A stretch of DNA of 58,029 bases from Myxococcota bacterium (GTDB lineage Bacteria > Myxococcota_A > UBA796): assembly GCA_047621685.1 (NCBI GenBank), contig JBLHNG010000003.1, positions 1 to 58,029 of the forward strand, given 5' to 3'. Shown piece by piece: positions 801 through 55,763 of the stretch. Position 1 is the first letter of the stretch. Each line of letters begins with the position of its first letter. The position numbers and the translations under genes are program-made. The notes beneath the pieces were generated by a model. The model was not told where the DNA came from. It saw only the letters and a program-made list of their open reading frames with translations, and searched no databases.

Positions 801-3800
801 ATGTTTCCTGAGACGGAGCGATTTGCCGAGCAGGCCCTCCTCGGCAGCGGAGCTCTGGGGCGGGTCTACCGGGCGGAGGACAGCACCAACGGCTTCGTGA
901 TCGCCATTCGCGTCCTCCCGCCGGCCCCGCCATGGGCAATGTACCGCCTCCAGAGTGACTTCTCTAAGCTCCAGTCCATCGAGCACGACAACCTCGTTCG
1001 CCCGATTGAGCTGGTCGACAGCGGCGATCCATGGTTCATCACGATGGCGTATATCGACGGGCCGACGCTGCCGGATTGGCTGGCGCGGTTTCCCGGCCCG
1101 GGTGCGATCCAGGAGGTCTTCGGACAGCTCACCCGGGGGCTGATGGCGCTGCACGACAGCGGGCTGCTCCACCGCAACCTCAAGCCCGACAATGTGCGCA
1201 TCACTTCGAGCGGAGTCGTCAAGGTGCTCGACGGCGGACTGGCCGGGCTGCTGTTCGATCCCCACGTCATCCCCGACGCACCGCAGACCCGCTACGAGGC
1301 CCCGGAGCTTCGCGCGGATCCGGAGCGGGTCACTGCGGCGGTGGACTGGTACAGCCTCGGCATGCTGCTGGCTGAGCAGCTCCCCACCTCCGACGGCCCC
1401 CTCGGCCTGCTGTGCGCCGCGCTCACCCACGCCGATCCAACCCTGCGTCCCGACGGGCCTGCTGTCCTCGCCGCACTCGTCGCGGCCCCGACCTGGCCAC
1501 CGCATCGCCCAGAGGGGCACCCCTTCGTCGGGCGACAGGCCCCCCTCGAGGCCCTGGAGGCCTGCTGGGAGCAGTGCCAGGACGGGCCGGTGATCGCCCT
1601 GCTGAGCGGCCGCAGCGGAGACGGGATGAGCACCCTCGCCGACCGCTTCCTCGCACAGCGCCCCGAGGGCACCACAACGCTCACAGTCCGCTGCCACACC
1701 CCGTCTCGGGTCCCCCTCGGCCTCCTCCGCCGCCTCGTTGCCGCGCTCCCGGTGACCTCCGTCGATGGCCTCAGCCCGGCGCTCGCGCAGGTGTTCCCAG
1801 TGCTGCGGGGCCGAACCGGTGACGTCACCGAGGTCGCGCTGCCACCGGATCCCCGGGCGGTGCGCTTCCAGGCTCTCGACGACCTGCGCACCTTGCTGGC
1901 CGCTGTGACGGCAGCAGCGCCGCTGGTGGTCCTCCTCGAAGACCTCCACCGCGCCGACGCAGCCTCTGCCCGGGTGCTCGCCGACCTCCTCACAGCTCCG
2001 TCGCCGCCCCGGCTGCTGCTGCTGGGAACCTGTCCGACGGAGGCGCTCTCCAGTGCGGTGTTCATCCGGGGCTGGACCGAGCTGGAGGAGCAGGCATCGG
2101 GCTGGATGCATCGGATCCCGGTCCCACCGCTGCCCCCGGAGGCGCTCCATGACAGCCTCACCCAGCAGGGCCTCACCGACCCCGAGCAGCGCCTCCGGAT
2201 CATCGCCAGCGCCGCCGGCAGCCCGCTGTTCGCCCAGCGGCTCCTCCGGATGGGCCTCGCCGACGTCAGCCGGGTGCCGCCGCTCACCCACCGCCAGGCG
2301 CTGACCCGCCACATCGCCACCCTCCCCATCCGCCAGCAGCGCATCCTGGAGGTCCTCACCGCCGCACAGCAGCCGCTGTCGGACACGATGCTGACCGGGA
2401 TCATCGGCGAGGCGATCGGTGACGCCATCGCTGCGCTGGTCGACGACGCGCTGATCACACCGCCCCCAAGCATCGCCCTGGCCCATGAGCGCATCCTCAC
2501 AGCCGTGCAGGCCCGGGCCGCGCCGACGCTCTACCACCGCAGCCTTGCTGAGGCCCTCATGGAGGAAGATCCGATCGATCGGATCCGGATCTGCTGGCAC
2601 CTGCTGGCCTCTGGCGATCCCGCCAGTGCCGTCCCCTACGCCATCGCCGCCGCCGATCAGGCCGCCGCCACGCTCCAGCTGGAGGCCGCCGGTACGCACT
2701 ACCACCTCGCCCTCACCCACCTCTCCGCCTCCGACAGCCGACGAAAGCGCGTGGTCGCTGCCGCCGCCGCAGTGATGGTCCGGCTGGGTCAGGCCCGGGA
2801 GGCCGCGCCGCTGCTGGAGGAGATCGCCGCGCTGCGCGGAGACGACGCCGACTGGCAGCGACGGGCCGCCGAGCAGTGGATCACCGCCGGAGAGCACACC
2901 CGCGGCCTCGAGATGCTCCAGTCCCTCCTGGAGCGTGCCGGAGTCCGCTGGCCGAGCGGGCGCACGGAGCAGTCTGTCCTGCTGCGCTTCGGCATGACCC
3001 GGCTCCGCCTCCAGACACTGCCCGAGGGCTGGGACACCGGCAGCCCCGAGCCCGCCGCGCTGCACCGGATGGCGCTGTGCTGGACCGCCGCCCAGGCCCT
3101 GTGGTGGGTCGCTCCCCTGCGCTCACAGTACCTCCTGATGATCGGCCTCGGACACGCGCTGAAGGCCCGAGCATCCCGCCAGACCGCCCGCTTCGGCCTG
3201 CTGCTCTACACCAACCGACGGGGTGCCTCCGAGCGCCTCGCGGCCTGTGAGGCGCTCGCCCGACGCATTGGACAGCCGGAGCTGAGCGCGATGGCGGACT
3301 GGATGGCCGCCGCCGCGCTCCACGCCGGCACCCCGCTGGAGAGCATCCCCGGCTACCAGTCCGCCATCGCGCAGTTTGAGCGAGAGTGCCCCGAGGCGGT
3401 CTGGGAGAGCCTCATGGCACGGACCGGGCTGCTCGACGCCCTGTGGTGGTCCGGTCAGCTCGACCAGCTCCGCCCCCTGTGGCAGGACAACCTCAAGCGC
3501 GCCCGCAGCCTCAAGGACCAGTCGCTGTGGTGCTCGGCGGCGCTGTGCGGTGGACGGCTGGCGCTGCTGGAAGGTCGAGTGGGTCGCGCCCGGGAGCGCG
3601 TCGCCCAGATCCTCGCCCGCACCCGCCCCCCCGTCGAGCACCTCCACGCCCGCCTCCTCGGTGTTCGCTGTGCACTCTACGCCGACGACCTCAGCACCGT
3701 CGGGGCCGAGATCGAGGCGATCTGGCACATCCTGGAGGACGACAGCCTCCTCAGCCTCCCCGCGCTGCACCTCCATGCCCTCGACCTCCGCGCCGCCACA

Positions 3801-4178
3801 CTGGCCGCCCTCCTGCGCGCCCACACCGCCGGCACCCCCGCACCCAACAGCCCCACCCCCCGCACCCTGAGTCGTGCAGAGGCCCGGATCCGCAAGATGC
3901 TGGAGCGCAGCGGGCGACCCGACATGCTCGCCCTCGCCCGCCTCCATCGGGGCAGCGTCCTGGCCGCTCAGGGCAACCGGACCGGGGCACAGACCGCGCT
4001 GAGTGAGGCGCAGCCGCTGCTGGAGTCCGCTGGCCTGCTCCTGCACGCTGCGATGTGCGCCGTTGCTGTTGGGCGGCTGTCGGATGACCCCGACGACACC
4101 CCGCTGCTCGACCTCGGTGCCCTCAACCCCGACGCCCTGCTCCGGGCGTTCGTTCCGGGTGTGGTGAGCGAGCCCTGA
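801..4178 (+). CDS. Ser/Thr-kinase-like domain fused to a STAND/AAA-type NTPase-like domain and a long helical-repeat region (predicted pseudokinase)
   Basis: Kinase subdomains at the N-terminus: GSGALGRV, HRNLKPDN, RYEAPE, DWYSLG. A P-loop-like GRSGDGMST follows, then more than 700 aa of Leu/Ala-rich helical repeats. 1125-aa ORF with strong GC3. Confidence 0.9.
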   Translation: MFPETERFAEQALLGSGALGRVYRAEDSTNGFVIAIRVLPPAPPWAMYRLQSDFSKLQSIEHDNLVRPIELVDSGDPWFITMAYIDGPTLPDWLARFPGPGAIQEVFGQLTRGLMALHDSGLLHRNLKPDNVRITSSGVVKVLDGGLAGLLFDPHVIPDAPQTRYEAPELRADPERVTAAVDWYSLGMLLAEQLPTSDGPLGLLCAALTHADPTLRPDGPAVLAALVAAPTWPPHRPEGHPFVGRQAPLEALEACWEQCQDGPVIALLSGRSGDGMSTLADRFLAQRPEGTTTLTVRCHTPSRVPLGLLRRLVAALPVTSVDGLSPALAQVFPVLRGRTGDVTEVALPPDPRAVRFQALDDLRTLLAAVTAAAPLVVLLEDLHRADAASARVLADLLTAPSPPRLLLLGTCPTEALSSAVFIRGWTELEEQASGWMHRIPVPPLPPEALHDSLTQQGLTDPEQRLRIIASAAGSPLFAQRLLRMGLADVSRVPPLTHRQALTRHIATLPIRQQRILEVLTAAQQPLSDTMLTGIIGEAIGDAIAALVDDALITPPPSIALAHERILTAVQARAAPTLYHRSLAEALMEEDPIDRIRICWHLLASGDPASAVPYAIAAADQAAATLQLEAAGTHYHLALTHLSASDSRRKRVVAAAAAVMVRLGQAREAAPLLEEIAALRGDDADWQRRAAEQWITAGEHTRGLEMLQSLLERAGVRWPSGRTEQSVLLRFGMTRLRLQTLPEGWDTGSPEPAALHRMALCWTAAQALWWVAPLRSQYLLMIGLGHALKARASRQTARFGLLLYTNRRGASERLAACEALARRIGQPELSAMADWMAAAALHAGTPLESIPGYQSAIAQFERECPEAVWESLMARTGLLDALWWSGQLDQLRPLWQDNLKRARSLKDQSLWCSAALCGGRLALLEGRVGRARERVAQILARTRPPVEHLHARLLGVRCALYADDLSTVGAEIEAIWHILEDDSLLSLPALHLHALDLRAATLAALLRAHTAGTPAPNSPTPRTLSRAEARIRKMLERSGRPDMLALARLHRGSVLAAQGNRTGAQTALSEAQPLLESAGLLLHAAMCAVAVGRLSDDPDDTPLLDLGALNPDALLRAFVPGVVSEP

Positions 4179-7226: not shown

Positions 7227-8572
7227 GGCAGCTCCACGGACACAGCACCCGGCAGGGCACCGCCGGCACCCTCCGGGATCACCGACAGGGTGGTTCGACG
7301 CTCTGGAGACAGCCAGGTCTGTGTGACCCGGACGACATCCTCAGCGGTCACATCAGCATACCGCTGCCACTCCTCGGCAAAGCAGTCCGGACGCCCATAG
7401 TGGACCATGCAGTCCGTCAGGTGCTCGGCGCGGTCTTCGGGAAGCTCCAGGGCGTCGAGGGTCGAGGCGAGCATGACGGCCTTTGTCCTGGCCATCTCTG
7501 CCTCGGTGGGCGGGTGGTCGATGACGTCTTGGAGGACCGCCTCGATCATGCGCTCCATCTTCGGGATCCGCGACTTCATCGAGGCGGTGTAGATGATGAA
7601 CTGGCTCGCCACCTCACCAGTGCTCAGCCACGCCCAGGTCTCGCTGGCGATCCGACGCTTGTAGTACATCGCGTCATCCAGCCGGGTGCCCCGACCATAC
7701 GAGAGGATGTAGCTCAGGGTCTCCAGGGCGGCGGCGTCGGGGTGCGCCTGGTTGGGGGCCGACCAGCCCATCCACAGCCCCCAGTCCTCGATGGCGTCCT
7801 CCAGCATCCCGTTGCTGCCACTCTCGGGCAGCGCGACCTCGGTGAGCCGTGGAGCCTCAGGGGCGGGCTTCTCGGGCACATCGGAGAACCACCACTCCAC
7901 CCGCGCGAGCATCTCCTGAGCGTCGAAGTTGCCGACCAGGGCGAGCACCGTGTTGTCCGGACGGTAGTGACGCTGCCAGAAGTCCTGGGTGCTCTCGACG
8001 GTGAAGCCCTCGACATCGGCGATCGTGCCGATGACCGGTACATGGTAGGGGTGCCCGACCGGCCACATCAGCCGGGAGAAGGCGTCCCAGTCCCGGCCAT
8101 GGGGATCGGCGTAGCCCTCGGCACGCTCCTGGAGCACCACATCGCGCTGGTTGGCGACGTTCTCCTCGGTGACCCCGGCGGACAGGAAGCCGAGCCGGTC
8201 ACTCTCCAGGAACAGGGCCAGCTCTGCCGCACCGGAGGGGAAGGTCATGTGGTAGGCAGTGGTGTCCTCAGAGGTCCAGGCGTTGTTGCTGCCGCCAGCC
8301 TGGGTGAGCCACTCGTCGAAGCTGGCGCCGGGCACGTTGGTGGAGCCCTCGAACATCAGGTGCTCGAACAGGTGCGCGCAGCCCCGCTCTCCGTCCAGCT
8401 CGTCCCGGGAGCCCACCCCGAACCGCAAATGCAGGGCGACGGTGTCGGTGCGACGAGACTCTTCGAGGATGACGGTGAGGCCATTGTCGAGGACGACGGT
8501 GATGGCGTCGGTGTCCAGCAGGGGCTGATCCGGCGGTGGGCCGGCGAGCGCGGTGGGGATGAGCAGCAGCAA
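7223..8572 (-). CDS. M16 family zinc metallopeptidase (HxxEH)
   Basis: HLFEHLMFEG zinc-binding inverted motif. Start placed at TTG 8572 because AGGAGG lies 7 nt upstream. The maximal ORF reaches ATG 8650 but would overlap the divergent kinase gene. Confidence 0.85.
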   Translation of the reverse strand: MLLLIPTALAGPPPDQPLLDTDAITVVLDNGLTVILEESRRTDTVALHLRFGVGSRDELDGERGCAHLFEHLMFEGSTNVPGASFDEWLTQAGGSNNAWTSEDTTAYHMTFPSGAAELALFLESDRLGFLSAGVTEENVANQRDVVLQERAEGYADPHGRDWDAFSRLMWPVGHPYHVPVIGTIADVEGFTVESTQDFWQRHYRPDNTVLALVGNFDAQEMLARVEWWFSDVPEKPAPEAPRLTEVALPESGSNGMLEDAIEDWGLWMGWSAPNQAHPDAAALETLSYILSYGRGTRLDDAMYYKRRIASETWAWLSTGEVASQFIIYTASMKSRIPKMERMIEAVLQDVIDHPPTEAEMARTKAVMLASTLDALELPEDRAEHLTDCMVHYGRPDCFAEEWQRYADVTAEDVVRVTQTWLSPERRTTLSVIPEGAGGALPGAVSVELP

Positions 8573-10109
8573 GGGGGAACCTCCTGACCGGGAGACTACA
8601 CCGGGGTCGGTATACTCGGGGCTCGTGCTGCTGAAACCCGGAACCACCATCGGCGACTACACCGTCCAGGCGTTCCTGGGCGCTGGCGGCATGGCGAGCG
8701 TCTACCGGGTGGTCCACACCTCTGGCTCGGTGCATGCCCTCAAGGTCCTCCGACAGACCGGTGATGCCGCCGTCCGTGCCGAGAAGATGGGGCGGTTCAT
8801 CGCTGAGGGAGAGATCCAGGCCCGACTGCGCCACCCCCACCTGCTGCCGGTGCTCGCGCTGATCAAGGATCCAGTGGGGCTGGTGATGGAGCTGCTGAGG
8901 GGCGAAGACCTCGGCGCACGGCTGATCCGGGAGGGCGCCCAGCCGCCGCTGCTGGCGGTTGGGTGGATCCAGCAGATCCTCTCCGCGCTTGCCCTCGTCC
9001 ACAGCCACGACATCGTCCACCGGGACCTCAAGCCGGGCAACATCTTCCTGGAGCGCCTCGCTGATGGCACCGATCAGGTCCGGGTGATGGACTTCGGTCT
9101 GGCGCGGGTGCTGGGGCTGTCGCAGACCCGCACCGGGGCGATCATCGGCTCGCTCTGCTACCTGTCCCCCGAGCAGATCACCGACAACCTCACCGTCGAT
9201 CACCGGGCGGACCTGTTCACCATCGGCGCGCTGCTGTTCGAGCTGCTCACCGGCACCCAGGCCTTCGTCGCGGAGAGCGAGTTCTCGGTCATGGAGCGCA
9301 TCCGCTCTGGCAGCCAGACCCCGGTAGCCGCGATCAACCCCGACATCCCCGACTCGCTCTGCGAGGTGGTCCGGCGCGCGCTGCGTCCCGACCCCGACGA
9401 TCGCTACCCCGATGCCGCCGCCTTCTCTGCGGCCCTCCAGACCACCATCGATGCCGGGGACGTGCCGCAGCAGGTCTCTCATCGCATCCACAACGCCCAG
9501 GAGGCCCTGCTGCGCAAGACGGTGCGGGCCCGGCTGGAGAAGTCGCTGTCAAAGCTGAGCCGCCGACGGGGTGGGATCGCGGGTCTCCCAGAGCTGCCCC
9601 CGCTCCTCCGGGTCTTCACCCTCGCGGGTCGCCTGGAGGCGATGTCCCTGCCCGCGCTCCAGGACGCCGCACAGAGCCTGCCTGACCTCATCGGCGCAGC
9701 CCGGCAGGCGATCCAGGACTGGGAGATCGAGACGGGGCTGCGAATTGATGCCTTCCAGGCGGCCCGGTATGCCCTCCGAGACGCCCAGGTCGCCAACCAG
9801 CCCGACGCCATCGCGGCTGAGGTCGGCGGCGGTCTGGGCGCGCGGTGGCGGTGGCGTCGGGTCGCTCAGGTTCGCTGGGAGGCCGAGGGGGCCGCCGCAC
9901 AGGCTCTCTCCAGGGTCCTCACCACCCTGCCCGAGCTCCCCGAGACTCACCCCCTCACTGCTCCCACACTCCGCCGCCGACAGCGCGCCGAGGATGCCCT
10001 TGTCCGCGCGCGGCATTGCTATCCCCCGCCGCCCCTGTCGATGTGGATGGCGGTGGTGCTTGGGGTGCTGCTTGGGCTGCTGGGGACGGTTGTTTGGGTG
10101 GTTTTGTGA
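8553..10109 (+). CDS. Ser/Thr protein kinase, C-terminally membrane-anchored
   Basis: Intact GAGGMASV, ALKVL, HRDLKPGN, DFGLAR and SPE motifs. Terminal TM segment MWMAVVLGVLLGLLGTVVWVVL. The start is ambiguous among GTG 8553, ATG 8559 and GTG 8625. Confidence 0.9.
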   Translation: MGMSSSKGEPPDRETTPGSVYSGLVLLKPGTTIGDYTVQAFLGAGGMASVYRVVHTSGSVHALKVLRQTGDAAVRAEKMGRFIAEGEIQARLRHPHLLPVLALIKDPVGLVMELLRGEDLGARLIREGAQPPLLAVGWIQQILSALALVHSHDIVHRDLKPGNIFLERLADGTDQVRVMDFGLARVLGLSQTRTGAIIGSLCYLSPEQITDNLTVDHRADLFTIGALLFELLTGTQAFVAESEFSVMERIRSGSQTPVAAINPDIPDSLCEVVRRALRPDPDDRYPDAAAFSAALQTTIDAGDVPQQVSHRIHNAQEALLRKTVRARLEKSLSKLSRRRGGIAGLPELPPLLRVFTLAGRLEAMSLPALQDAAQSLPDLIGAARQAIQDWEIETGLRIDAFQAARYALRDAQVANQPDAIAAEVGGGLGARWRWRRVAQVRWEAEGAAAQALSRVLTTLPELPETHPLTAPTLRRRQRAEDALVRARHCYPPPPLSMWMAVVLGVLLGLLGTVVWVVL

Positions 10110-20198: not shown

Positions 20199-22862
20199 AT
20201 GGATCGGATCCCACAGCGAGCGCAGCGCTGGTGGCAGCGACTGGATGACCCGGGGCGACGCCACGCATCCTGGATCGCGCTGTGTGGGGTGGTCTACATC
20301 GCGCACTACCTCGTGTACTGCCTGCCGCAGCCGTTCTTCATCGAAGACGCCGCGATCACATTCTCGTATTCCGAGCACCTGATCCAGGGCGAGGGTCTGG
20401 TGGCGTACCCGGGCGGGGAGCGGGTGGAGGGGTACAGCAATGCGCTGTGGATGTTCATCCTGGCAGGACTGTATGGCCTCGGCATCCCCACCTGGACGTC
20501 CGCGAAGGTCCTCGGTGCGATCCTCGGAGTCGCCACCCTGCCCTTCGTCTTCGGAATCACCCGACGCATGAAGCCCGAGGGCAGCGCTGACGCCGCGTGG
20601 CTCGCCCCCCTCTGCCTCGCGCTGACTCCGCCCTTCGTCATCTGGAACGCATCGGGCCTGGAGAACGCGCTCTTCTGCTTCCTCCTCGCTGCCGGGACCT
20701 GGAGGCTGCTGAGAGAGAGCGAAGACACCACGCTCAGGCCGCTGTCCGCCATCCTGTTCTTCCTGCTCACCATGACCCGCCCCGAAGGCATGATGTACGC
20801 AGCCATCGCGCTGCTGGCCCGGGTCATGTTTGCCGTCGCCGACCGTCGCCTCGTCTCCGTTCTTACCTGGCTCGCGGCCTTCTTCGTGCCCTGGCTTGCC
20901 TACAATGGCTGGCGATACTGGTACTTTGCCTGGGAGTTTCCCAACACCTACTACGCAAAGCTCGGTGCAGGGAAGACCTTTCGGCCCTTCGGCTGGACCA
21001 TCAAGGGCTGGAAGTACATCAAGGGCTACCTGCTGACCCACGGCGTCGTGTTTGCCCTGCCCGTGCTCTTCTTCGCCCTCGGCGGGCTGAAGGGGCGGAT
21101 CCGTAAGGGATTGTGGGCGGTCGCCATTGTCGGGCTGACGTTCCTGATGTTCTACCCCGGCGGTGGAAAGGCCGAGCCAGAGGTCTGGGTGCAAGCCCGG
21201 GTGTGGTCGATCCTCGGCTTTGCGGCACTGATGGGACTGATCACCCTGGGCCGGTCCGGCTGGCGGGCGCGGGGCACGATGTGGGCATACTGTGCCTCCG
21301 GGGTGTTCTTCGCGCTGTATGCCGGTGGGGACTGGATGGTCGAGTGGCGGTGGTTCAACATCGTCTCCATCAGCCTGTTCCCCCTGCTTGTGGTCGGCAT
21401 CGGCGAGCTTCTCGACGCCATCCCCAGCTCCAGCCGCATGGTCGCCCTGCCCGCCCGGCTGTCCCGGTGGGGTGCGACCGCATCGCTCCGGACGCTGCTT
21501 CTGGTCGCCGTGATGGTCCCGTTCGCGATCAACGAGGTCGTGCGCATCGTCAACTTCGCCCTCTACCCCGAGACCTCCACCCGAGACGTCCACCGGCGGG
21601 TCCGGTACATGGCCGGAGTGCAGCAGCGCCTGGACCTCGATGAGGTGGTCTTGCTCGACGTCGACATGGGCGCCCACATGTACCACTCGGACTGGGACAT
21701 CGTCGACATCGCCGGCCTCGTCGACGTGCCGATGGCCCGGCACTCCGACTTCAGGAAGAACTTCATCGCCGAGTACCTCTTCAAAGAGCGCCTGCCCCAC
21801 TTCGCCCATGTCCACGACTACTGGGCACGCACCAGCAAGATCCCGAGCCAGTCCGGCTGGAAGAAGGGGTACATCGAGATCGCCCCGTACCCCTACATGG
21901 GCGGCGGACTGCACCCAGGCAACTTCATCCGCAAGGACATCTTCATCAGCCAGTACAGCGGTGGCCAGCCCGTCCAGCGGTTTGACGGCGGCATCTCACT
22001 GATGGAGACCGACCTGCCCGCCCCAGAGGTCGCACCAGGCGGATCGCTGTTCTTTGCCTCGTCCTGGCGGGCGGTGTCTCGAAGTGCAGGCTTCACCGTG
22101 CTGGTGTGGCTCGACGACAGCGCCGGACACCGCACCGTGACCGCCATTGAGCCGGGGTATGGCTGGTACGACCCGGCGGACTGGCACGGTCGTGAGGTGG
22201 TCGAGGGGCGGTTCTGGATCACGGTTCCTCCCGAGCTTCCGACCGGCACCTACCGACTCGGGCTCGTCGTCCTCGACACTGCCACCGGCACCGTCCTGCC
22301 CGCCATCGGCTCTGAGTCCGCGGTCTACCTGCCCGGGGAGGTCACGCTGGAGCAGACCGTGGAGATCGTGTCACCAGAGGCTGCCCAACAGCACGCCGAG
22401 GCCGATCGCGAAGCCGCCGTCTCGCTGGCCGTCGCCGGGGACTGCGAGGCGGTCTGGCCACAGTGGAAAGACGCCACGTACCACCTCGATCGAGACTGGC
22501 GCACCATCCATGAGCCCGACATCGAGACCACCCTGGCCCGCTGCTGGGTGCTGCGTGCGGAGGCCGCTACGGAGCGCCAGGATCGCATCGACAGCCTCAT
22601 CGCCGCCCGGAAGCGAGACCACCGACTCGACGGCCTCACCCGCCTCACCCGCCCCCTCGCCGCCGAGCTGGATGTAGCAGGCGATGTGCTGTTCGCTTCA
22701 GAGGACTGGGAGGGCGCCTATGCAGTGTGGACCGATGCCCTCGCGCTCGATCCCCGGCTGTCCTGGACCCGTCGGAAGGCCGAGGAGGCCCGGGATCGTC
22801 GGCTGAAGATCACCCGCCCCGGTGCTGAGCCCCTGCCGCCCACCGAGTCCATTCGCCGGTAG
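20199..22862 (+). CDS. large polytopic membrane protein, GT-C-type glycosyltransferase-like, with soluble C-terminal half and TPR-like tail
   Basis: N-terminal FIEDAAITFSYSEHL...GGERVEGYSNALW followed by about 12 TM segments, then about 450 aa soluble sequence ending in a TPR-like WEGAYAVWTDALALDP. Confidence 0.75.
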   Translation: MDRIPQRAQRWWQRLDDPGRRHASWIALCGVVYIAHYLVYCLPQPFFIEDAAITFSYSEHLIQGEGLVAYPGGERVEGYSNALWMFILAGLYGLGIPTWTSAKVLGAILGVATLPFVFGITRRMKPEGSADAAWLAPLCLALTPPFVIWNASGLENALFCFLLAAGTWRLLRESEDTTLRPLSAILFFLLTMTRPEGMMYAAIALLARVMFAVADRRLVSVLTWLAAFFVPWLAYNGWRYWYFAWEFPNTYYAKLGAGKTFRPFGWTIKGWKYIKGYLLTHGVVFALPVLFFALGGLKGRIRKGLWAVAIVGLTFLMFYPGGGKAEPEVWVQARVWSILGFAALMGLITLGRSGWRARGTMWAYCASGVFFALYAGGDWMVEWRWFNIVSISLFPLLVVGIGELLDAIPSSSRMVALPARLSRWGATASLRTLLLVAVMVPFAINEVVRIVNFALYPETSTRDVHRRVRYMAGVQQRLDLDEVVLLDVDMGAHMYHSDWDIVDIAGLVDVPMARHSDFRKNFIAEYLFKERLPHFAHVHDYWARTSKIPSQSGWKKGYIEIAPYPYMGGGLHPGNFIRKDIFISQYSGGQPVQRFDGGISLMETDLPAPEVAPGGSLFFASSWRAVSRSAGFTVLVWLDDSAGHRTVTAIEPGYGWYDPADWHGREVVEGRFWITVPPELPTGTYRLGLVVLDTATGTVLPAIGSESAVYLPGEVTLEQTVEIVSPEAAQQHAEADREAAVSLAVAGDCEAVWPQWKDATYHLDRDWRTIHEPDIETTLARCWVLRAEAATERQDRIDSLIAARKRDHRLDGLTRLTRPLAAELDVAGDVLFASEDWEGAYAVWTDALALDPRLSWTRRKAEEARDRRLKITRPGAEPLPPTESIRR

Positions 22863-22904
22863 CGGCTTTCGACGCCAGCACACCGGATCAGGGTAGCCTC
22901 ACCC

Positions 22905-23699
22905 ATGGCCTCTCCCCTGTCCCTCCTCGGCTTCCTCATGACCCACGCGGTGATCCTCTGGTACTTCCAGGTGATCAACAGGGAGAAGGTCCCGGTCAGC
23001 ATCGGGCCGTTCTCTGGTGCGATCCTCACCGGGATGGTGCTCTCTGCCGTCGGCTTCGCTCTGGATCCCGGCGGCTTGACCGGCGGCCTGATGGCGGTCA
23101 CCCTGTTCATGGGTGGCTTCATCCTCTGGCTGCTCACCCAGCGCAAGGTGCCCGACGGCAACCTGATCGTCTCCACCGGCCAGCCCATGCCGCTCCTCGC
23201 CGCCACCACCGACACCGGGGCAGCCTTCGACCTCGCGAGCCTCAAGGGTCGGCGTGTGATGGTCAAGTTCTTCCGCGGCAGCTGGTGACCGTACTGCTCC
23301 GCCGAGTTGCGGCGGTTTCAGGACATGGCTCCCCTGCTCGATGAGTACGGGGTCTCAGTAGTCGCCATCAGCCGGGATACCCAAGAGGACGCCGCTGCTC
23401 ACCGCGCCCGGGACGGCCTCACCTTCCCCCTGCTCTCTGACCCGGACCTGTCGGTGATTAAGCGGTTCGGGCTGCTGCACGAGGGCGTCATCCGGTTCCG
23501 GACCTTCCTCATCGGCGGGGCGCGGTTCCCGCTGGGCTGGCCGGTGGGCTTCGACCAGATGGCGATTCCCACCACCCTGCTGCTCGACGCGGACCACGTG
23601 GTGCGGTGGATCGATCAGGCGGACGACTACCGGATCCGGGGAGATGTGGAGCGGACGCGGGGGGCGCTGGTGGAGACGTTTGGGGAGCAGGCAGTTTGA
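22905..23699 (+). CDS. membrane-anchored AhpC/TSA-type redoxin, candidate selenoprotein (UGA 23286-23288 read as Sec)
   Basis: Listed ORFs 22905..23288 and 23307..23699 are in the same frame. Joined they read KFFRGSW-U-PYCSAELRRF...VVAISRD...FPLLSDPD. Three N-terminal TM segments. Confidence 0.7.
23294..23321 (+). promoter_or_regulatory. candidate bacterial SECIS hairpin
   Basis: ctg-ct-CCGCC-gaguugc-GGCGG-ttt-cag. The upper stem starts 10 nt after the UGA and the loop contains GU. Confidence 0.45.
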
Positions 23700-23735
23700 T
23701 CATGGCATCCCAATCCGCCCGGATATGCTCTATCC

Positions 23736-24857
23736 ATGAAGCACCTCCCCCTCCTCCTTCTCTTCGTCGGCTGCGGCGATAAAGACACCGGCTCCTCCAC
23801 CGAAGAAGCCGACGCGGACACCGACGCAGACACCGATGCAGACACGGATGCCGATACCGACGCAGACACCGATGCAGACACCGACGCAGACACCGATGCA
23901 GACACCGACGCAGACACCGACGCCGATCCAATGTGCGACGCCGCCCAGGCCATCGTCGATGCCGCCAACACCCTGACGGCATCGCTCGACGCCAAGCAGC
24001 TCGACACCATCTCCTTCGCCATGGACGACGAGGAGCGGTTCACCTGGTCCAACCTCCCGCCGATCACCACCCCCCGGGAGGGGCTGCCCTACGCCGACAT
24101 GACCGCCGATCAGCGCACGCTCGCCGAGGCCCTGCTCGCCGCCTCCATCAGCGCGGGCGGGCTGGAGGAGGTCGAGGGCATCATCCAGATCGAGGCAGAG
24201 CTGCAAGCGGGCGGCGACATGTCGGCCGATGGTGACCTCTACTACTTCGACATCTTCGACACCCCCTCCATGAAGGAGCCCTGGGGCTGGCAGCTCGACG
24301 GCCACCACCTCGCGATGAGCTTCACCGCCGTCGGCTGCATCTACACCATGACCCCCACCCTCTACGGGGTCTCCCCCAAGGCCACCTCCGACGGCTACGA
24401 GCCCCTGGGTGACGAGGTCATGCTGGCCGAGGCGCTCGCCAGCGCGATGACCGAGGCGCAGCTCAAGGGTGCCGCCCTCACCACCCCACCACAGCTCATC
24501 GCTGGCCCGAACTACCAGGGCGACCTGGAGCCCGAGGGCCTGCCCCTCTCCGAGCTGACCAGCGATCAGCTCTCCCTGCTCGACTCACTGATCGAGGCCT
24601 ACATAACCGACCAGGAGGGCGTGTTCGCCGACTGGAAGATGGAGGAGGTCCGGGCAGAGTACGATGAGACCGTCCTGGGCTGGACCGGACCGTTCGACGG
24701 CACCGGCGCCATCTACTACCGCATCCACGGTCCCGGAATCCTCATCGAGTTCGACCACGTGGACCAGACCCGCGAGCACATCCACGCCGTCTATCGGGAT
24801 CCCCGCAACGACTACGGCGAGGACCTGCTGGCCAGGCACTACCAGGAGTTCCATTGA
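23736..24857 (+). CDS. DUF3500 family lipoprotein
   Basis: Lipobox LLLFVGC, a (DADT)n linker, and DGHHL...YYRIHGPGILIEFDH...HIHAVYRDPRNDYGEDLL as in DUF3500. Confidence 0.85.
   Translation: MKHLPLLLLFVGCGDKDTGSSTEEADADTDADTDADTDADTDADTDADTDADTDADTDADTDADPMCDAAQAIVDAANTLTASLDAKQLDTISFAMDDEERFTWSNLPPITTPREGLPYADMTADQRTLAEALLAASISAGGLEEVEGIIQIEAELQAGGDMSADGDLYYFDIFDTPSMKEPWGWQLDGHHLAMSFTAVGCIYTMTPTLYGVSPKATSDGYEPLGDEVMLAEALASAMTEAQLKGAALTTPPQLIAGPNYQGDLEPEGLPLSELTSDQLSLLDSLIEAYITDQEGVFADWKMEEVRAEYDETVLGWTGPFDGTGAIYYRIHGPGILIEFDHVDQTREHIHAVYRDPRNDYGEDLLARHYQEFH
23808..23927 (+). repeat. 12-nt tandem repeat encoding (D-A-D-T)n
   Basis: gacgc(a/g)gacacc-type units repeated about 10 times inside the DUF3500 gene. 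Confidence 0.9.
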
Positions 24858-25387
24858 GCCCCCTCGCGCTCATCCTGCTGATCGGCTGCACCCGGCCCGG
24901 CTCCACCGGCACCGACCCGATCACCGAGGGCTTCGAGATCGGCGAGGAGCCGCCAGACTTCACCCTCACCAACGCCGAGGGCGACCTCGTCTCGCTGTCG
25001 GACTACCCCGACCAGCGAGTCATCGTGGTCGGCACCGCCTCCTGGTGAAGCACCTGTGTGTCCCTGGTTCAGGGACTGAATGACGAGTGGTACACCGTGG
25101 ATGCACCGGAGGATGTCGAGGTCATCGCGGTGCTCATCGAGGACAGCCAGGGCAACCCGGCAGACGCAGCAGACGTGGCGGACTTCGTGAGCTTCACCGA
25201 CGTGACCTTTCCAGTGCTCGGCGACGAAGAGGCCACCTGGATCGAGGTCTGGGGCTCCGGCGACAGCGGCAGCGGTCGGCACACGTACACGATTATTGGC
25301 ACTGATGGGACGATCGGCTGGCGCAAGGATGATGGCAGCAGTGGCTCGGTGGAGGAGATCACCGCCGGGCTGGCGATTGTGGAGTAG
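24854..25387 (+). CDS. TlpA/ResA-like thiol:disulfide oxidoreductase lipoprotein, candidate selenoprotein (UGA 25046-25048 read as Sec)
   Basis: Listed ORFs 24854..25048 and 25058..25387 are in the same frame. Joined they read PDFTLTNAEGDLVSLSDYPDQRVIVVGTASW-U-STC...VEVIAVLIED...FPVLGD. Lipobox LLIGC. The TTG start overlaps the DUF3500 stop (TTGA). Confidence 0.7.
25060..25076 (+). promoter_or_regulatory. candidate bacterial SECIS hairpin
   Basis: GTCCCTG-gtt-CAGGGAC is a perfect 7-bp stem starting 11 nt after the UGA. The apical region reads GGUUC. Confidence 0.5.
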
Positions 25388-25417
25388 GTCGGCGTTCCTG
25401 GGGGACTCATTGATGCA

Positions 25418-25557
25418 CAGGACGGTCCTTTGAGCCTGCGGACGGTGGCCGCAGGGCGGGGATTCACAGCGGGTGTCATGCTGGGGCCGCTGGGCGGGTA
25501 GTACAGGGGGCGGGGAACGCAGTCGCTGAGCGAGTATTCGTGCAGCCCCCTTGAGCG
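25418..25557 (-). repeat. dispersed intergenic repeat, family B copy 2
   Basis: The reverse complement aligns with 10575-10700 and 53855-53970 (ccccgccccctgtactacccgcc...cacccgct...ccgcaggctcaaaggaccgtcctg). It ends in gtgcagcccccttgagcg, which is shared with the 10126 repeat. Confidence 0.6.
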
Positions 25558-25690: not shown

Positions 25691-26113
25691 TCAGGCCGAA
25701 GGCCGCAGCCGTGTGAGCCCAACCAGCACCCCAATCCCCACAACCCCGCCAATGTGCGGGGCGGCGGCGCTCACCGGATGGCCGGCGAGCAAGACGAGCA
25801 CCAGATCCGCCAGGGGCAGCAGCAGAATCAGCGGCAGCAGCCGACGCTGGGCGACGGGATGGGGGCGCAGCGCGAGCAGGGCGAGGCCGAGGATGAGGTC
25901 ACGGGTGCCGGTGGCCCGCACCCAGGTCGGTGCTTCAGAAGGCACCCCGTAAGTCTGAGAGGACCACTCCGGCGCAACCAGCGCCCCCGCCCCCAGACCG
26001 AGCAGGCCGATGGCCAGGGCGAGGGTGCCGAAGGAGATGAGCGTGTTGGTGGTGGAAGAGGTCACCAGAGGATCATATCGGCATTGTCGACGCAGTCGAG
26101 GATCAGGCAACAC
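25691..26113 (-). CDS. small hydrophobic membrane protein (DUF4267-like)
   Basis: Four hydrophobic segments. A shorter start at GTG 26065 is equally possible. Confidence 0.55.
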   Translation of the reverse strand: MLPDPRLRRQCRYDPLVTSSTTNTLISFGTLALAIGLLGLGAGALVAPEWSSQTYGVPSEAPTWVRATGTRDLILGLALLALRPHPVAQRRLLPLILLLPLADLVLVLLAGHPVSAAAPHIGGVVGIGVLVGLTRLRPSA

Positions 26114-26221
26114 CGCACCTGGGCGAGACCTTCCGATCAGGCCGAAAAATCAGCGACTCAATCGAGCGCTGTGTACACTGAATTCAAGTCAACATCCGGT
26201 AATTTCAATCAGGAACAGTCC

Positions 26222-28715
<2,494 letters not shown>

Positions 28716-28738
<23 letters not shown>

Positions 28739-38596: not shown

Positions 38597-40888
38597 TCAA
38601 GGCACCATCAGCCGAAACATCCCCATGTCCTCCGCCAGCACCGCCGCCCGCCAGGAACCAACCGGGTCCGCAGGGTCCGCATACAGACGCTCCATCAGCG
38701 CACGGCTGTCAGCATCATCGACCGGAATCGTCGCGGCAATGACCGCCTCCCCGCCAGCCAGCAGAAACGCCTGAGCCAGCCCGAGACTCTCCACCGCAAC
38801 CGGGGGAGAGGCTGCACCATCGCAGGTCGAGAGGACAACGGTCTGCGGTGCGCGAGACAGGGTCAGCAAATCACCGACGGTCAGCCGACCGCCGCCGTTG
38901 ACCAGGAACGCGCTGTCGGTCACGATGTTCTCGCGCTCACCATGCCCGGCATAGTGCAGCATCGCGGTGTCTTCCAGCAGCAACAGCAGCGACCTGCGGG
39001 TGACATCGCTGCCCGAGAGCGGGCGCACGACCCTGCCCGCCCGGGTCAGCGCGCCAGTAACCAACGCGGCCTCCGCCCGTGCCCCGGGCAGGTTGAGCCG
39101 GGGATCACTGACGACTGCCGCAGTGTTCTCGATCGGGCGCGGGGGTCGTGGCGGCAGATCGAGGCTATAGCGGACAAGATGATGGGCCAGCAGCGGGCGC
39201 CCCTGGAGCGGGAGCATGTGCAGGTCGATGCGCCTCAGCGTGCCATGTGGCAGCAGCGTGATCACCTCGGCGGATGCGATCTGCTCGGCAAACGGCACCA
39301 GCAGCGCCTCGGCGAGGATCTCTGGAGGAGCGTTGAGGTCGACGGAGGGAATCCGGGCAGTGGTCAGTCCCTCCGAGCTGGCCGCGATCCCCACCCAGTC
39401 CGACCCCAGTGAGAACCACGTCAGCAGCAGCTCGCCGGGATCCGGAGAACGAAGCGAGGCCTCGGGGAGGATGTGCGGGGTGCCAGCATCGAGGGCCTGG
39501 CGGGCAAGCTCCTCCTGCCGACGACGCAGGATCGTCAGGACACGGTTCTGCTCACTGGTGGCCGACCAGTCTCCGGGGGTCACCGCCTCCCGGGCGACGC
39601 GGTAGTCGCGTGCCGCCGACAGCCACCGCTCCCGATCTTCCACGGAGAACCGCTCGGTGAGCAGCCCCTGGAGGAGGAGGAGCCGAGCGGTCCGGATCAC
39701 CACGAGAGCGTCTTCAGGCCGATCGTCCGCCAGCAGCAGGGTCACCAGCAGCCGGTCGGCGGGCAGTCCCCGACTCAAGAAACGATCCCGGCCGTTGTGG
39801 AGTGGGACCAGGAGGCTGTGCTCCAGCAGGACCGCGCGGGCCTCCTTGAGCACCGCGATGGCCTCCGCATGCTGCCCCAGCGACGCCAGGATCTCTCCCT
39901 GGGCCACCAGCGCCTGCCAGCGATGACGCGGAGAGGCCGCACCCGTCGATGCGATCACCCCTTCCATCGCCGAGAGCGCCTCGCCGAGCTGGCCGCGGTG
40001 CTGGTGAAGGCGCCCACGCAGATACGCCGCCCACAGCGTCTCGTCGTGGCGTTCTGGTGCGGCGCTGTTGAGGGCCGACTCCAGGGCATCCAGGTCGCCG
40101 AACTCAAGCGCATCGCGGGCTTGAGTGAGGTGTGTGCGAGAGATCGAGGGACAGTCGATCACTCCCGACAGCTCGATCTCCACCCCGCTCAGCTCAGCGG
40201 CCTCCACCAGCACCCAGCCCCGAGACTCCTCTGCCGCACAGCCATCCTCCGACCGGAGGATCCGGCGCGCCTCCCGGTGGCGGCCCACCGCCGCGAGCTG
40301 CTCCGCCAGCCGAAGCGACACCGGAGTGTTTACGCTGTAAATCATCCGGCCTGAAAGCTGGTTCGCATGACGATAGTGCCTCATCGCGGCCCGATGGTCC
40401 CCCCGGTAGCCCGCCAGATCCCCACGACGGAGCTGGAGCTGCCAGGCAGAGGTCAGATCGCCCGGGAGCCGATCGGTGATGCGCTGGAGGTGTGCTTCCG
40501 CAGTCCCCACATCCCCGTCCGCGATCGCGGCATCGACCTCGGAGAGCCCGGCGAGCACCTGCTGCCGTGTGTCGGTCGTCCCGGTCGTCTTCCCCAGCAG
40601 AAGCCGGCCGATCCGACCGTTGTTGTCCTCGATGACCAGTGTCTCTGCGCCAGACGGCACCGCGACATCCAGCAGCACCCCGCCCCCCTCGATCTGCGAC
40701 ATCGCGCCGACCGGCTGGCCGTCCACCATCACCGACAGCGGCGGCAGGGCCTCGACCCACAGGCGCACCGGCGTGCTCCCCGGCAGACACCGCGGCCCGG
40801 TCGTCACCGCCACACAGCCGTCGAACATCAACGGCAGCGTCGGTGGGTCGGGGGTCTGCATGCAGCTGAGCAGGACGAAGAAGATCAT
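38597..40888 (-). CDS. TPR-like repeat + CHAT (caspase-like) protease domain lipoprotein
   Basis: ATG 40888 overlaps the upstream stop (ATGA). Lipobox MIFFVLLSC. The C-terminal dyad context is LHYAGHGE and VVLSTCDGA. Confidence 0.85.
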   Translation of the reverse strand: MIFFVLLSCMQTPDPPTLPLMFDGCVAVTTGPRCLPGSTPVRLWVEALPPLSVMVDGQPVGAMSQIEGGGVLLDVAVPSGAETLVIEDNNGRIGRLLLGKTTGTTDTRQQVLAGLSEVDAAIADGDVGTAEAHLQRITDRLPGDLTSAWQLQLRRGDLAGYRGDHRAAMRHYRHANQLSGRMIYSVNTPVSLRLAEQLAAVGRHREARRILRSEDGCAAEESRGWVLVEAAELSGVEIELSGVIDCPSISRTHLTQARDALEFGDLDALESALNSAAPERHDETLWAAYLRGRLHQHRGQLGEALSAMEGVIASTGAASPRHRWQALVAQGEILASLGQHAEAIAVLKEARAVLLEHSLLVPLHNGRDRFLSRGLPADRLLVTLLLADDRPEDALVVIRTARLLLLQGLLTERFSVEDRERWLSAARDYRVAREAVTPGDWSATSEQNRVLTILRRRQEELARQALDAGTPHILPEASLRSPDPGELLLTWFSLGSDWVGIAASSEGLTTARIPSVDLNAPPEILAEALLVPFAEQIASAEVITLLPHGTLRRIDLHMLPLQGRPLLAHHLVRYSLDLPPRPPRPIENTAAVVSDPRLNLPGARAEAALVTGALTRAGRVVRPLSGSDVTRRSLLLLLEDTAMLHYAGHGERENIVTDSAFLVNGGGRLTVGDLLTLSRAPQTVVLSTCDGAASPPVAVESLGLAQAFLLAGGEAVIAATIPVDDADSRALMERLYADPADPVGSWRAAVLAEDMGMFRLMVP

Positions 40889-41646
40889 CGCTCGGAGATG
40901 ATGACCTCGCGCTTCCAGAAGGTCCACTGCGGCGGGGGCTCCTCTGCTGCTGCGTCCAGGGTGTCTTCGGAGAAGGTCGCGTGCCACCCCCGGATCGGGA
41001 TCGCGCGCTCCAGGGTGCTGACGGGCCCCGCCGGTCCGACTCCGATCAGCAGGGTGTGGGGCCCAGAGGCCAACGCCAGGTCCTCACCGACGATGCCCCC
41101 CAGTCGGTGTGCGCCGTTGCTGGAGGAAACGTCCAGGTCCATCGGCGCCCACCCATCCGGGCCACGGGTGAACACCACGACCTGTGTGGAGCTGTCGGGC
41201 TGGGTGCGGGGTCGGAGGATGAGGCGCATCCGGGAGCCGATCGAGTAGGCCATGACCTCGTCTGGATCGGAGTCGCTCAGGGAGCGCTCGGGCAGATCAC
41301 CGGGGCGGGCGATCAGCCGATAGACCGGCGGCTCTGCGGACGGCGTGCTGGCGACATACCCGAGCCGCACCACCATCACTGCCGCCATCACTGCCACCAG
41401 ACGCGGCAGCCAGGGCCACCACCGACGGCGCGGTTTCTGCGGCACCCGAGGGGGTGGAATCACGGCCAGCTCTGCACGAATCCGACGTGCAAAGCCAGAT
41501 CCGAGGGGAGCCAGGGCGATCGCAGCAGCCGGGTCCGACTCCGCGAGCGCCGCTGCCTCCTCCGCGCTCAGCTCCCCGGCAGCCAGCTGATCCCAGCGGG
41601 CGTCGAGGTGCTCCATGTCGATCTCATCATCCAGGTCTCGTTTCAT
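40885..41646 (-). CDS. single-pass membrane anti-sigma-factor-like protein
   Basis: Lies 3 nt downstream of the sigma gene. It has a short acidic cytoplasmic N-terminus, the TM segment WWPWLPRLVAVMAAVMVV, and a roughly 150-aa extracytoplasmic domain. Confidence 0.6.
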   Translation of the reverse strand: MKRDLDDEIDMEHLDARWDQLAAGELSAEEAAALAESDPAAAIALAPLGSGFARRIRAELAVIPPPRVPQKPRRRWWPWLPRLVAVMAAVMVVRLGYVASTPSAEPPVYRLIARPGDLPERSLSDSDPDEVMAYSIGSRMRLILRPRTQPDSSTQVVVFTRGPDGWAPMDLDVSSSNGAHRLGGIVGEDLALASGPHTLLIGVGPAGPVSTLERAIPIRGWHATFSEDTLDAAAEEPPPQWTFWKREVIISER

Positions 41647-49823: not shown

Positions 49824-50398
49824 GGCTGTTGTTCCTCAAGCGCAGCTCGGAGCAGCACTCGGATTCGATGAAGTCGGCTTCGCACAGCCAATGGACTCAG
49901 CGGGGGCTCCAGCTGGGCTGCAATCTCCGCAGGCTTCAGCTGCTGCTCGACACTCATCCAAAAAATCATGGGATCAGGCGGCTCCAGGAAGCGAACCACG
50001 TCGAGGATGCTGCGAGCGGTCTCGTCGCGCTGGACGGGGTCGGGCATCTCATAGGAGGTGGTAAACCGGGCGAGATAGCGCGCCTGACGTTCCGCATGGC
50101 GCTGTGTGTTCCGACGGACCCGCATCGCCTCGTAGCGGGCGAAGGTCGCAAGCCAGCCGCCCAGACTGCGCCCATCAAACCGCTGCCAGTTCTCCAGCAT
50201 CAGGGCGAAGACATTCTGGAGCTGCTCCTCGGATTCCTCCTGAGAGAACCCCTTTCGCAGAAAGATCGCCATCAGCTCTGGCCCATGAACCTCCCAGGCA
50301 AGCGGAACCACCGGCCCCACATCTCCGCTCGCAACAGCTTCATCGAGCAGACGTCTCAGCTCATCCGGTGACCGATACATGGGAGAACTCTGACTCAT
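49820..50398 (-). CDS. ECF-type RNA polymerase sigma factor (divergent)
   Basis: ATG 50398 overlaps the receiver-gene stop (ATGA). Region-2-like LQNVFALMLENWQRFDGRSLGGWLATFARY and region-4-like KPAEIAAQLEPPLSPLAVRSRLHRIRVLL. Confidence 0.7.
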   Translation of the reverse strand: MSQSSPMYRSPDELRRLLDEAVASGDVGPVVPLAWEVHGPELMAIFLRKGFSQEESEEQLQNVFALMLENWQRFDGRSLGGWLATFARYEAMRVRRNTQRHAERQARYLARFTTSYEMPDPVQRDETARSILDVVRFLEPPDPMIFWMSVEQQLKPAEIAAQLEPPLSPLAVRSRLHRIRVLLRAALEEQQP

Positions 50399-50826
50399 TC
50401 GGAGTGTGCAGACTCCGCGCTGATCAGATTTCGCAGGTGGGAGAACGAGAATGGCTTGCACAGGATCGGTCGGCCGAGGGTCTTGAGGTGTGCCTCGGTG
50501 TCCCAGGAGCATCCGCCGGTCATGAACACCGTCCGAGACTGCTGCTCTGGGGACAGGCGGGCGTAGAACGTCGGGCCATCCATCACCGGCATGACGACAT
50601 CAGAGACGATCATGTGTGGAGTGCCATGCACTGCGATGTCGGCGAGGGCATCGACAGCGGATGCGAACAGGCTGACAGAGTAGTCCTCAAGCAGCTCCCC
50701 GAGCAGCATCCGAATCACCGGGTCATCATCGACAACCAGGACTCGAAGGGACGCCTGGGGCATCTGACAGTGATGACTTGATGATGGCTGTGGAGACACC
50801 TGCTCCCTCCGGTTTAAGGCGTTCAT
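50395..50826 (-). CDS. stand-alone response-regulator receiver domain protein
   Basis: RVLVVDDDPVIRMLL...MIVSDVVMPVMDG...VFMTGG...CKPF. ATG 50826 overlaps the upstream stop (ATGA). The ATG at 50763 is an alternative start. Confidence 0.8.
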   Translation of the reverse strand: MNALNRREQVSPQPSSSHHCQMPQASLRVLVVDDDPVIRMLLGELLEDYSVSLFASAVDALADIAVHGTPHMIVSDVVMPVMDGPTFYARLSPEQQSRTVFMTGGCSWDTEAHLKTLGRPILCKPFSFSHLRNLISAESAHSE

Positions 50827-55450: not shown

Positions 55451-55763
55451 CGCAAGAACGCAGCGAGCGGCACTCTGGAGGGTTGTGGTGGGTGAGAGGG
55501 ACAGGACGAATTCTCGGGTGGTGCAGTGGATCGATGACGCCTGCTCATAGGATAAGCAAGAAATGTGCCTCTCGTTTGAAGCTTGACAACCCCAGACATC
55601 GTTGCTGGGAAGGTAGTTTACTACTTAAGAATCTGGACAACGGCTTCGCTGTAACCCTATGTAACCGCACCGCCGTTCTGGACTCCATAGACTATCAGGG
55701 TCCGATCCGATCCCTGCTCATCCTCGACCAAGGGGCTGGGAAAACCTCTGTCTGGAGTCCCAG

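Follow-up and report, generated by a model that had tools for sequence, protein, structure and literature searches.

A stretch of 58,029 nt from a Myxococcota bacterium (contig JBLHNG010000003.1 of assembly GCA_047621685.1, forward strand; here called the window, whose own positions serve as coordinates throughout) very probably carries, at 22905-23699, a genuine selenoprotein gene in which an in-frame UGA is recoded with the help of a selenocysteine insertion sequence (SECIS). The predicted product is a membrane-anchored protein of the AhpC/TSA fold, with selenocysteine (Sec, U) as the first residue of a UxxC motif. A first-pass annotation of the window had proposed the same arrangement, a UGA-encoded Sec at the first position of UxxC in a membrane-anchored AhpC/TSA-fold redoxin, with a SECIS downstream, and this core reading survived every test that was run. 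Interpretation of the locus as one Sec-encoding gene follows from the alignment of Cys and Sec forms, a Pfam domain that runs across the TGA, the presence of the TGA in 24 assemblies, a covarying hairpin of the bacterial SECIS (bSECIS) type, and purifying selection on the region after the TGA.

The plus-strand frame that opens with the ATG at 22905 and closes with the TGA at 23697-23699 contains only one internal stop, the TGA at 23286-23288, as the first-pass annotation had described. The open reading frames (ORFs) at 22905-23288 and 23307-23699 are one reading frame split by this codon. In the read-through translation, the junction passes from GRRVMVKFFRGSW across the stop into PYCSAELRRFQDM, with the segments VVAISRD and FPLLSDPD following, and the motif at the TGA becomes W-U-P-Y-C, within VKFFRGSW-(TGA)-PYCSAELRRF. 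With Cys placed at the stop, the Pfam family AhpC-TSA (PF00578) crosses the TGA as a single domain over amino acids 92-235 (2.5e-26; 92.5 bits against a gathering cut-off of 26), and the Redoxin domain also crosses it as a single match (3.3e-20). The G+C content of third codon positions is 0.92 and 0.86 in the two halves, both of which bear the coding signature of the 67% GC window. A six-frame scan of the window for in-frame TGAs with 35 stop-free, coding-like codons on each side gave three sites: 23286, a second UxxC site at 25046, and 41652, the last being the trivial case of two adjacent genes that share a frame. Of the 42 genes predicted in the window, 29 end with UGA as their ordinary stop, the gene studied here included; recoding is therefore local and specific to the site, with no change in the genetic code.

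A homologue search over 5.8 billion proteins returned 367 relatives. The best 111 of the 367 are ∼265-290 amino acids long, share 33%-48% identity with the read-through product, and cover ∼97% of it, indicating that the N-terminal hydrophobic region is shared as well as the peroxiredoxin (Prx)-like domain. The column of the TGA is an invariant Cys in 50 of the 50 full-length homologues aligned, lying inside K-F-F-R-G-x-W-C-P-Y-C-x-x-E-L, which is the alignment of Cys with UGA that the first-pass annotation had anticipated. No full-length protein match exceeds 48% identity; relatives at the DNA level reach 55%-76%. Such an absence of close relatives from the protein databases as intact proteins is expected if these relatives carry the same "stop." One seemingly closer homologue (P0094, 195 amino acids, from a 955-bp ENA contig) was set aside, as its N-terminus is unrelated. 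Its C-terminal half is 66% identical to the part of the protein encoded after the TGA, and its N-terminal half resembles a PuuE-like or polysaccharide-deacetylase sequence. Probably, either the contig is chimeric or the ORF was miscalled around a further copy of the Sec type.

At the DNA level, a single scan across 185,579 species-representative genomes yielded 32 related loci. The aligned codon is TGA in 24 sequences (23 loci and the window) and TGT or TGC in eight. The TGA forms come from metagenome-assembled genomes (MAGs) labeled Myxococcota, Polyangia, Nannocystales, Kofleriaceae, Byssovorax, Oligoflexia, Candidatus Binatia, Chloroflexota, Anaerolineae, Promineifilaceae, Acidobacteria, and "Deltaproteobacteria"; the eight loci with TGT or TGC belong to Alteromonas, Pseudocolwellia, Marinomonas, Shewanella, Halobacteriovorax, and Bacteriovorax. 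Homologues that end at the TGA and lack a downstream domain, a pattern raised in the first-pass annotation as a point against recoding, were not encountered: the frame after the TGA is intact in all 24 TGA sequences and runs for 125-141 codons to a normal stop. The ratio of nonsynonymous to synonymous substitution rates (dN/dS) in this region is 0.11-0.32 at dS values of 0.8-2.4 (the window compared with six TGA loci). These ratios show that the region is translated and is subject to purifying selection, which excludes a pseudogene or a sequencing error. It is true that an ordinary Cys-type gene could come to show TGA in place of TGC or TGT by a single-base event, whether through decay or through faulty sequencing or assembly. 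The same TGA, however, recurs in 24 independent assemblies from several phyla with the downstream frames intact, the hairpin described below is confined to the TGA forms and covaries, and identities of 40%-76% among the loci exclude copies of one contaminant. An origin of this kind is scarcely credible and can be considered effectively refuted.

Gene callers split the locus at the TGA, and the ORF list offers a TTG start at 23307, 18 nt after it. An alternative would therefore be two products, a 127-amino-acid membrane protein that ends at the UGA and a 130-amino-acid soluble protein that begins at the TTG, with the hairpin serving in coupling or attenuation. Such a split, however, would break a single AhpC/TSA domain within its active-site motif. 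Strand β1 and the Trp would belong to one fragment, and neither fragment would contain the resolving Cys, since the TTG lies past C131. Moreover, the PYCSAE codons between the TGA and 23307 are kept as protein in all 24 TGA sequences, and the Cys homologues are single chains. Two separate products are extremely unlikely, and a single read-through gene remains the preferred interpretation.

Shortly after the UGA, the transcript can form a hairpin composed of a 5′ arm CCGCCG (23299-23304), a loop AGUUG (23305-23309), and a 3′ arm CGGCGG (23310-23315). The stem begins 10 nt and the loop 16 nt after the UGA, and the hairpin energy is −11.1 kcal/mol. The published bSECIS consensus (PMC13188914, Fig. 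2A) has a loop of 3-9 nt, an upper stem of 4-16 bp, a distance of 16-37 nt from UGA to loop, and a minimum free energy of −7.5 kcal/mol or lower, with a G within the first two loop positions that is usually followed by G or U. With a 5-nt loop starting A-G-U, a 6-bp stem, and the spacing and energy just given, the hairpin agrees with all of these values. Each of the 24 TGA sequences has the same element, a 6-bp stem with an AGUUR loop placed 16 nt from the UGA, and none of the eight loci with TGT or TGC has it; the energies for the hairpin range from −8.5 to −12.1 kcal/mol in the former compared with 0 to −2.4 kcal/mol in the latter. All 24 TGA sequences conform after the TGA to CCN TAY TGY NNY GCY GAG TTR CRG YGN.

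Within this conserved text, the stem is free to vary only in a paired manner. The RNAalifold consensus is one 6-bp helix (alignment columns 26-31 with 37-42), and all 144 of the 144 stem cells form standard pairs. Compensatory changes are clearly evident at pair 26-42 (G-C 13, C-G 8, U-A 2, and G-U 1) and at pair 30-38 (C-G 19 and U-A 5). The covariation score, in which a seventh, partly paired position is included, is 0.333 compared with 0.150 ± 0.018 for shuffled partners, none of 500 shuffles scoring as high, and it falls to 0.008-0.129 when the partners are slid by 1-3 columns. The hairpin drawn in the first-pass annotation therefore exists, with the GU in its loop, is conserved in the 24 TGA sequences, and has a stem 1 bp longer than drawn. 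Extension of the stem by ctg/cag, which had also been suggested, was rejected, as these positions are not conserved and RNAalifold keeps the 6-bp stem only.

The hairpin also leaves its mark on codon usage. Its Leu codon is UUG or UUA in 24 of 24 sequences, compared with 16% elsewhere in the same genes, its Arg codon is CGG in 19 of 19 (27% elsewhere), its Glu codon is GAG in 24 of 24 (65% elsewhere), and its Ala codon is never GCG (43% elsewhere). At the protein level, the peptide AEL(R/Q)(R/C) is common to the Sec forms, and in the Cys forms AEL is followed by varied residues (IA, VA, NL, or QM). The restriction of AEL(R/Q)(R/C) to the Sec forms indicates that RNA structure dictates two amino acids of the protein. 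The family thus represents a clean natural Sec-versus-Cys experiment, in which upkeep of the hairpin forces this peptide and unusual codons upon the Sec forms, and it illustrates the constraint that a SECIS within a coding region places on protein sequence.

Several observations weigh against a SECIS-dependent selenoprotein gene. The spacing of 16 nt from UGA to loop is the shortest that the bSECIS range allows. Rfam, applied with gathering thresholds to the whole window and permissively to 22800-25500, returned no SECIS or other credible RNA family, and the folding energy of the single sequence is no better than that of shuffles (z = −0.9) in this 67% GC sequence. Judged from the aligned sequences, it is by comparative, rather than energetic, evidence that the hairpin is far beyond chance. 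Domains of the selA, selB, or selD type were not found among the 40 further window proteins scanned with Pfam; of the 42 predicted genes, those at 53999-55450 and 55665-58028 (open-ended) were covered by tblastn only. A tblastn search with Escherichia coli SelA, SelB, and SelD over 530 kb of window and related loci returned nothing in the window and only one selB fragment, on a Myxococcota MAG contig (JBHHVG010000165.1, L026). ARAGORN gave no tRNA in the window and no tRNA-Sec in the window or the 23 related loci. The Sec machinery of the organism is thus only presumed. The selB evidence from L026 is itself a fragment of 75 amino acids, after which the contig falls from ∼68% to ∼39% GC and coding potential is lost; this end of the contig is probably chimeric. 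In addition, comparison of neighborhoods among the Sec-type loci revealed no conserved partner genes and no functional hint.

Within positions 1-1972 of L026, serS (TIGR00414, 431 bits) lies 2.7 kb from the Sec-type Prx-like gene. After it come 75 codons from the start of a GTPase whose best NCBIfam match is selB (TIGR00475, 102.8 bits over 65 positions), the next matches being IF-2 gamma (61.7 bits) and EF-Tu (35.8 bits). This fragment bears on the identity of the inserted residue. The sequence data prove that recoding is signaled but not which residue is chemically inserted, and the Sec machinery was not seen in the window. It could therefore be argued that the hairpin drives recoding of the UGA to a residue that is not, or not always, Sec: Cys borne by tRNA(Sec) under selenium scarcity, or another amino acid supplied by a SelB-like system. 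Against this, the hairpin follows the specific bSECIS consensus, G-U in the loop included, the position is the classic site of Cys/Sec exchange in a redox motif, and one carrier has the selB fragment on the same contig. A dedicated hairpin for Cys would have no obvious benefit, since the TGT and TGC homologues encode Cys directly. Insertion of a residue other than Sec is very unlikely, and Sec is the residue assumed in what follows.

Support for an organism that decodes Sec comes from a second, independent UxxC gene 1.7 kb downstream, in which TGA and hairpin are again conserved. It reads ...VIVVGTASW-(TGA 25046-25048)-STCVSLVQGL... (W-U-S-T-C), and an AhpC-TSA match crosses its TGA (3.5e-15). 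The hairpin, GUCCCUG-GUU-CAGGGAC at 25060-25076, has 7 bp, lies 18 nt after the UGA, and has an energy of −11.2 kcal/mol. The only close database relatives of this gene are 109-amino-acid fragments that start just past the same position. A metagenome scan for it gave no match, and orthologues were found by protein search instead, on six marine or environmental metagenome contigs (L033-L038, one of them from TARA) at ∼70% identity. These six contigs amount to two distinct orthologue sequences, five contigs being identical over the region; all six keep the TGA and the hairpin GUCCCUG-GUY-CAGGGAC and are called as ORFs of 64-71 and 109 amino acids.

The position of Sec within the active site was assessed by alignment to solved structures. 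U128 aligns both with the Thr of the BCP motif P-x-x-x-T-P-G-C (5enu) and with the N-terminal, attacking Cys of the ResA motif W-C-x-P-C (4nmu). C131 falls on the position of the peroxidatic Cys, and Arg124 is found in place of the Prx Pro. When tested against the peroxiredoxin signature PxxxTxxC, the protein failed, as only the Cys (C131) is kept. With U128 on the Thr of BCP and the first Cys of ResA, and C131 on the peroxidatic Cys, the center is therefore thioredoxin-like (UxxC) on a peroxiredoxin scaffold. The first-pass annotation had allowed for Sec at either the peroxidatic or the attacking Cys; the attacking position of the thioredoxin type is upheld, and the peroxidatic position is taken by C131 instead.

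The hydropathy profile has three hydrophobic segments at the N-terminus. Structure was modeled with AlphaFold (AF2) on a Cys homologue of 47% identity (P0001), standing in for the protein itself, with a mean predicted local distance difference test score of 93.8 and a predicted template modeling (TM) score of 0.88. In this model, helices at residues 3-25, 37-59, and 66-87 precede a thioredoxin (Trx) fold, and CxxC is at the N-terminus of a helix spanning residues 138-149. The profile and the model together bear out the three N-terminal transmembrane helices proposed at the outset. The nearest PDB folds identified with Foldseek are BCP/PrxQ (3hjp and 5enu, TM scores 0.83-0.87) and ResA. Across 50 homologues, Lys and Arg number 3.1 per sequence in loop 1 and 3.0 after the third transmembrane helix, compared with 0.2 for the N-terminus and 0.1 for loop 2. 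Such an enrichment suggests, under the positive-inside rule, that the catalytic domain is most likely on the cytoplasmic face of the membrane.

The frame, the alignment of Cys and Sec forms, the conserved TGA, the covarying hairpin, the purifying selection after the TGA, and the fold and helices of a homologue are shown by these data, from which we infer selenium insertion, topology, and substrate. During translation, the UGA at 23286-23288 would be decoded as Sec to give a product of 264 residues, with the mRNA hairpin at 23299-23315 recruiting SelB-GTP-Sec-tRNA(Sec) to the ribosome, by analogy to the established bacterial mechanism. The three N-terminal helices would tether the thioredoxin-fold (AhpC/TSA, BCP-like) domain to the membrane. 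The segment U128-P-Y-C131 would be placed at the N-terminus of helix α1, where Sec could attack the substrate and Cys131 resolve the resulting selenenylsulfide. The activity of the protein at the membrane surface may be that of a thiol/selenol-disulfide oxidoreductase or of a peroxide reductase whose center is based on Sec instead of Thr/Cys. As a best guess, it would reduce disulfides or hydroperoxides on the inner face of the membrane and draw on a reductant of the Trx or glutaredoxin type.

Table 1. Positions of the predicted features of the selenoprotein gene and of the second candidate gene in the window
Feature	Position	Strand	Details or basis
Single coding sequence, probable membrane-anchored Prx-like UxxC selenoprotein	22905..23699	+	264 codons; Sec at codon 128; true stop TGA 23697-23699
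In-frame UGA, read as Sec (U128), first residue of UxxC	23286..23288	+	Alignment with invariant Cys; same codon TGA in related loci
Cys131 codon (TGC), predicted resolving Cys of UxxC	23295..23297	+	Alignments to 5enu (TPGC) and 4nmu (CKPC)
N-terminal membrane anchor, three predicted transmembrane helices (about residues 4-24, 35-55, and 58-78)	22905..23159	+	Hydropathy; homologue model
Bacterial SECIS-type hairpin, 6-bp stem CCGCCG/CGGCGG, loop AGUUG	23299..23315	+	Folding and comparative data
Second predicted UxxC selenoprotein gene, lipoprotein-type (LLIGC), TlpA/ResA-like AhpC/TSA fold	24854..25390	+	TGA 25046-25048; domain; hairpin; orthologues

Between the two selenoprotein genes sits a DUF3500 gene (23736-24857, plus strand; PF12006, 8.5e-75), whose stop is overlapped by the TTG start of the second gene. 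The DUF3500 protein carries ∼11 tandem Asp-Thr-Asp-Ala (DTDA) repeats, encoded at ∼23800-23930, after a lipoprotein-like signal (LLFVGC). Directly upstream of the first gene, 20199-22862 (plus strand) encodes a multi-pass membrane protein of 887 amino acids with no Pfam match; a weak relative of it (31% identity over 248 amino acids) adjoins the Sec-type gene in one related locus only (L025). Further away are two large proteins with CHAT domains (38597-40987 and 47400-49823, both on the minus strand), one of which has TPR repeats. The gene at 47400-49823 lies directly downstream of a sigma-70 region-2 gene (49820-50512, minus strand), with an overlap of 4 nt. Ser/Thr kinases are also abundant in the window (801-4178 and 8553-10109), which further encodes a 994-amino-acid protein with MopE/FG-GAP repeats (25754-28738). 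Overall, its gene repertoire is myxobacteria-like.

In the window, and likewise in 24 or more public MAG assemblies, the gene described here is split or truncated, and standard pipelines will keep mis-annotating it. The alignment derived here and the SECIS consensus UGA-N10-NSGCYG-AGUUR-CRGCSN would allow it to be called correctly. The two selenoprotein genes, within 2 kb, would single out the organism, which is uncultured, high in GC, and probably marine, as one that uses selenium. This solid but ordinary find does not overturn what is currently understood of bacterial selenoproteins.

Among known systems, BCP/PrxQ proteins (3hjp, 5enu, and 5iiz) are the closest solved folds of the homologue model, and 5enu is also the best PDB match by sequence (6e-10). 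Cys131 occupies the position of their peroxidatic Cys, but Arg124 replaces the Pro and Sec128 the Thr of PxxxTxxC, and BCPs are soluble whereas the protein described here is membrane-anchored. A typical peroxiredoxin (BCP/PrxQ or AhpC) was rejected, as the signature is not kept. Proteins of the ResA/TlpA/DsbE group (4nmu and 1st9) share a W-C-x-x-C in the same place, the thioredoxin fold, and a membrane tether. In contrast, ResA and TlpA are held by a single N-terminal anchor and lie outside the cytoplasm, while the present protein has three helices and, judging by its charges, a cytoplasmic domain. Assignment to this group was also rejected, given the helices, the positive-inside pattern, and NCBIfam scores below the cut-offs (ResA, 39.8 bits against 170; DsbE, 19.2 against 123). 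PrxU of the Eubacterium acidaminophilum type (NF040737) is likewise a selenoprotein of the AhpC/TSA fold. There, however, Sec replaces the peroxidatic Cys (TxxU), whereas here it is three residues upstream (UxxC), and the model was rejected at 20.8 bits against a cut-off of 270. The SelL-related model NF040769 (29.5 bits against 120) and WAxxUGC_long NF041054 (31.7 bits against 300) were rejected as well. Indeed, no NCBIfam model reaches its cut-off for the protein, which explains the lack of annotation in MAGs.

The closest relationship is to the Prx-like UxxC selenoproteins of PF00578, which have been catalogued since 2004-2008 (PMC1088965, PMC2398784, PMC13188914). They are listed as "predicted with high confidence" in Table 1 of PMC13188914, which cites Kryukov and Gladyshev (2004), and the Sargasso Sea set contains 22 such sequences (PMC1088965). 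"Prx-like 1" accounts for 225 selenoprotein sequences compared with 2,740 Cys homologues in the Global Ocean Sampling data (PMC2398784, Table 2). By its Pfam domain (PF00578) and its motif, which are the criteria applied in these papers, the predicted protein belongs to this Prx-like UxxC ("Prx-like 1") kind. Like Prx-like 1, it combines the PF00578 fold with a UxxC rather than a TxxU motif and a bSECIS directly after the UGA; Cys homologues outnumber Sec forms among annotated proteins, and the carriers are marine and environmental bacteria. Unlike Prx-like 1, the subfamily of the present protein has a conserved three-helix anchor, which is not mentioned for Prx-like 1 in PMC13188914, PMC1088965, or PMC2398784, and a nearly invariant SECIS (AGUUR loop) common to several phyla. 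Perhaps, although the balance tips slightly the other way, these features define a distinct, uncurated selenoprotein subfamily, with a three-helix anchor and a cytoplasm-facing UxxC Prx-like domain, spread together with its near-invariant AGUUR-loop SECIS over at least five phyla. Such a distribution would suggest that gene and SECIS were transferred horizontally together. In the non-proteobacterial lineages, Sec would be the prevalent form, and the role could be to repair, in a selenium-dependent manner, oxidized lipids of the membrane or a membrane-protein partner. The three-helix anchor and the near-invariant SECIS shared across phyla, for which no earlier description was found, are variations within a known kind.

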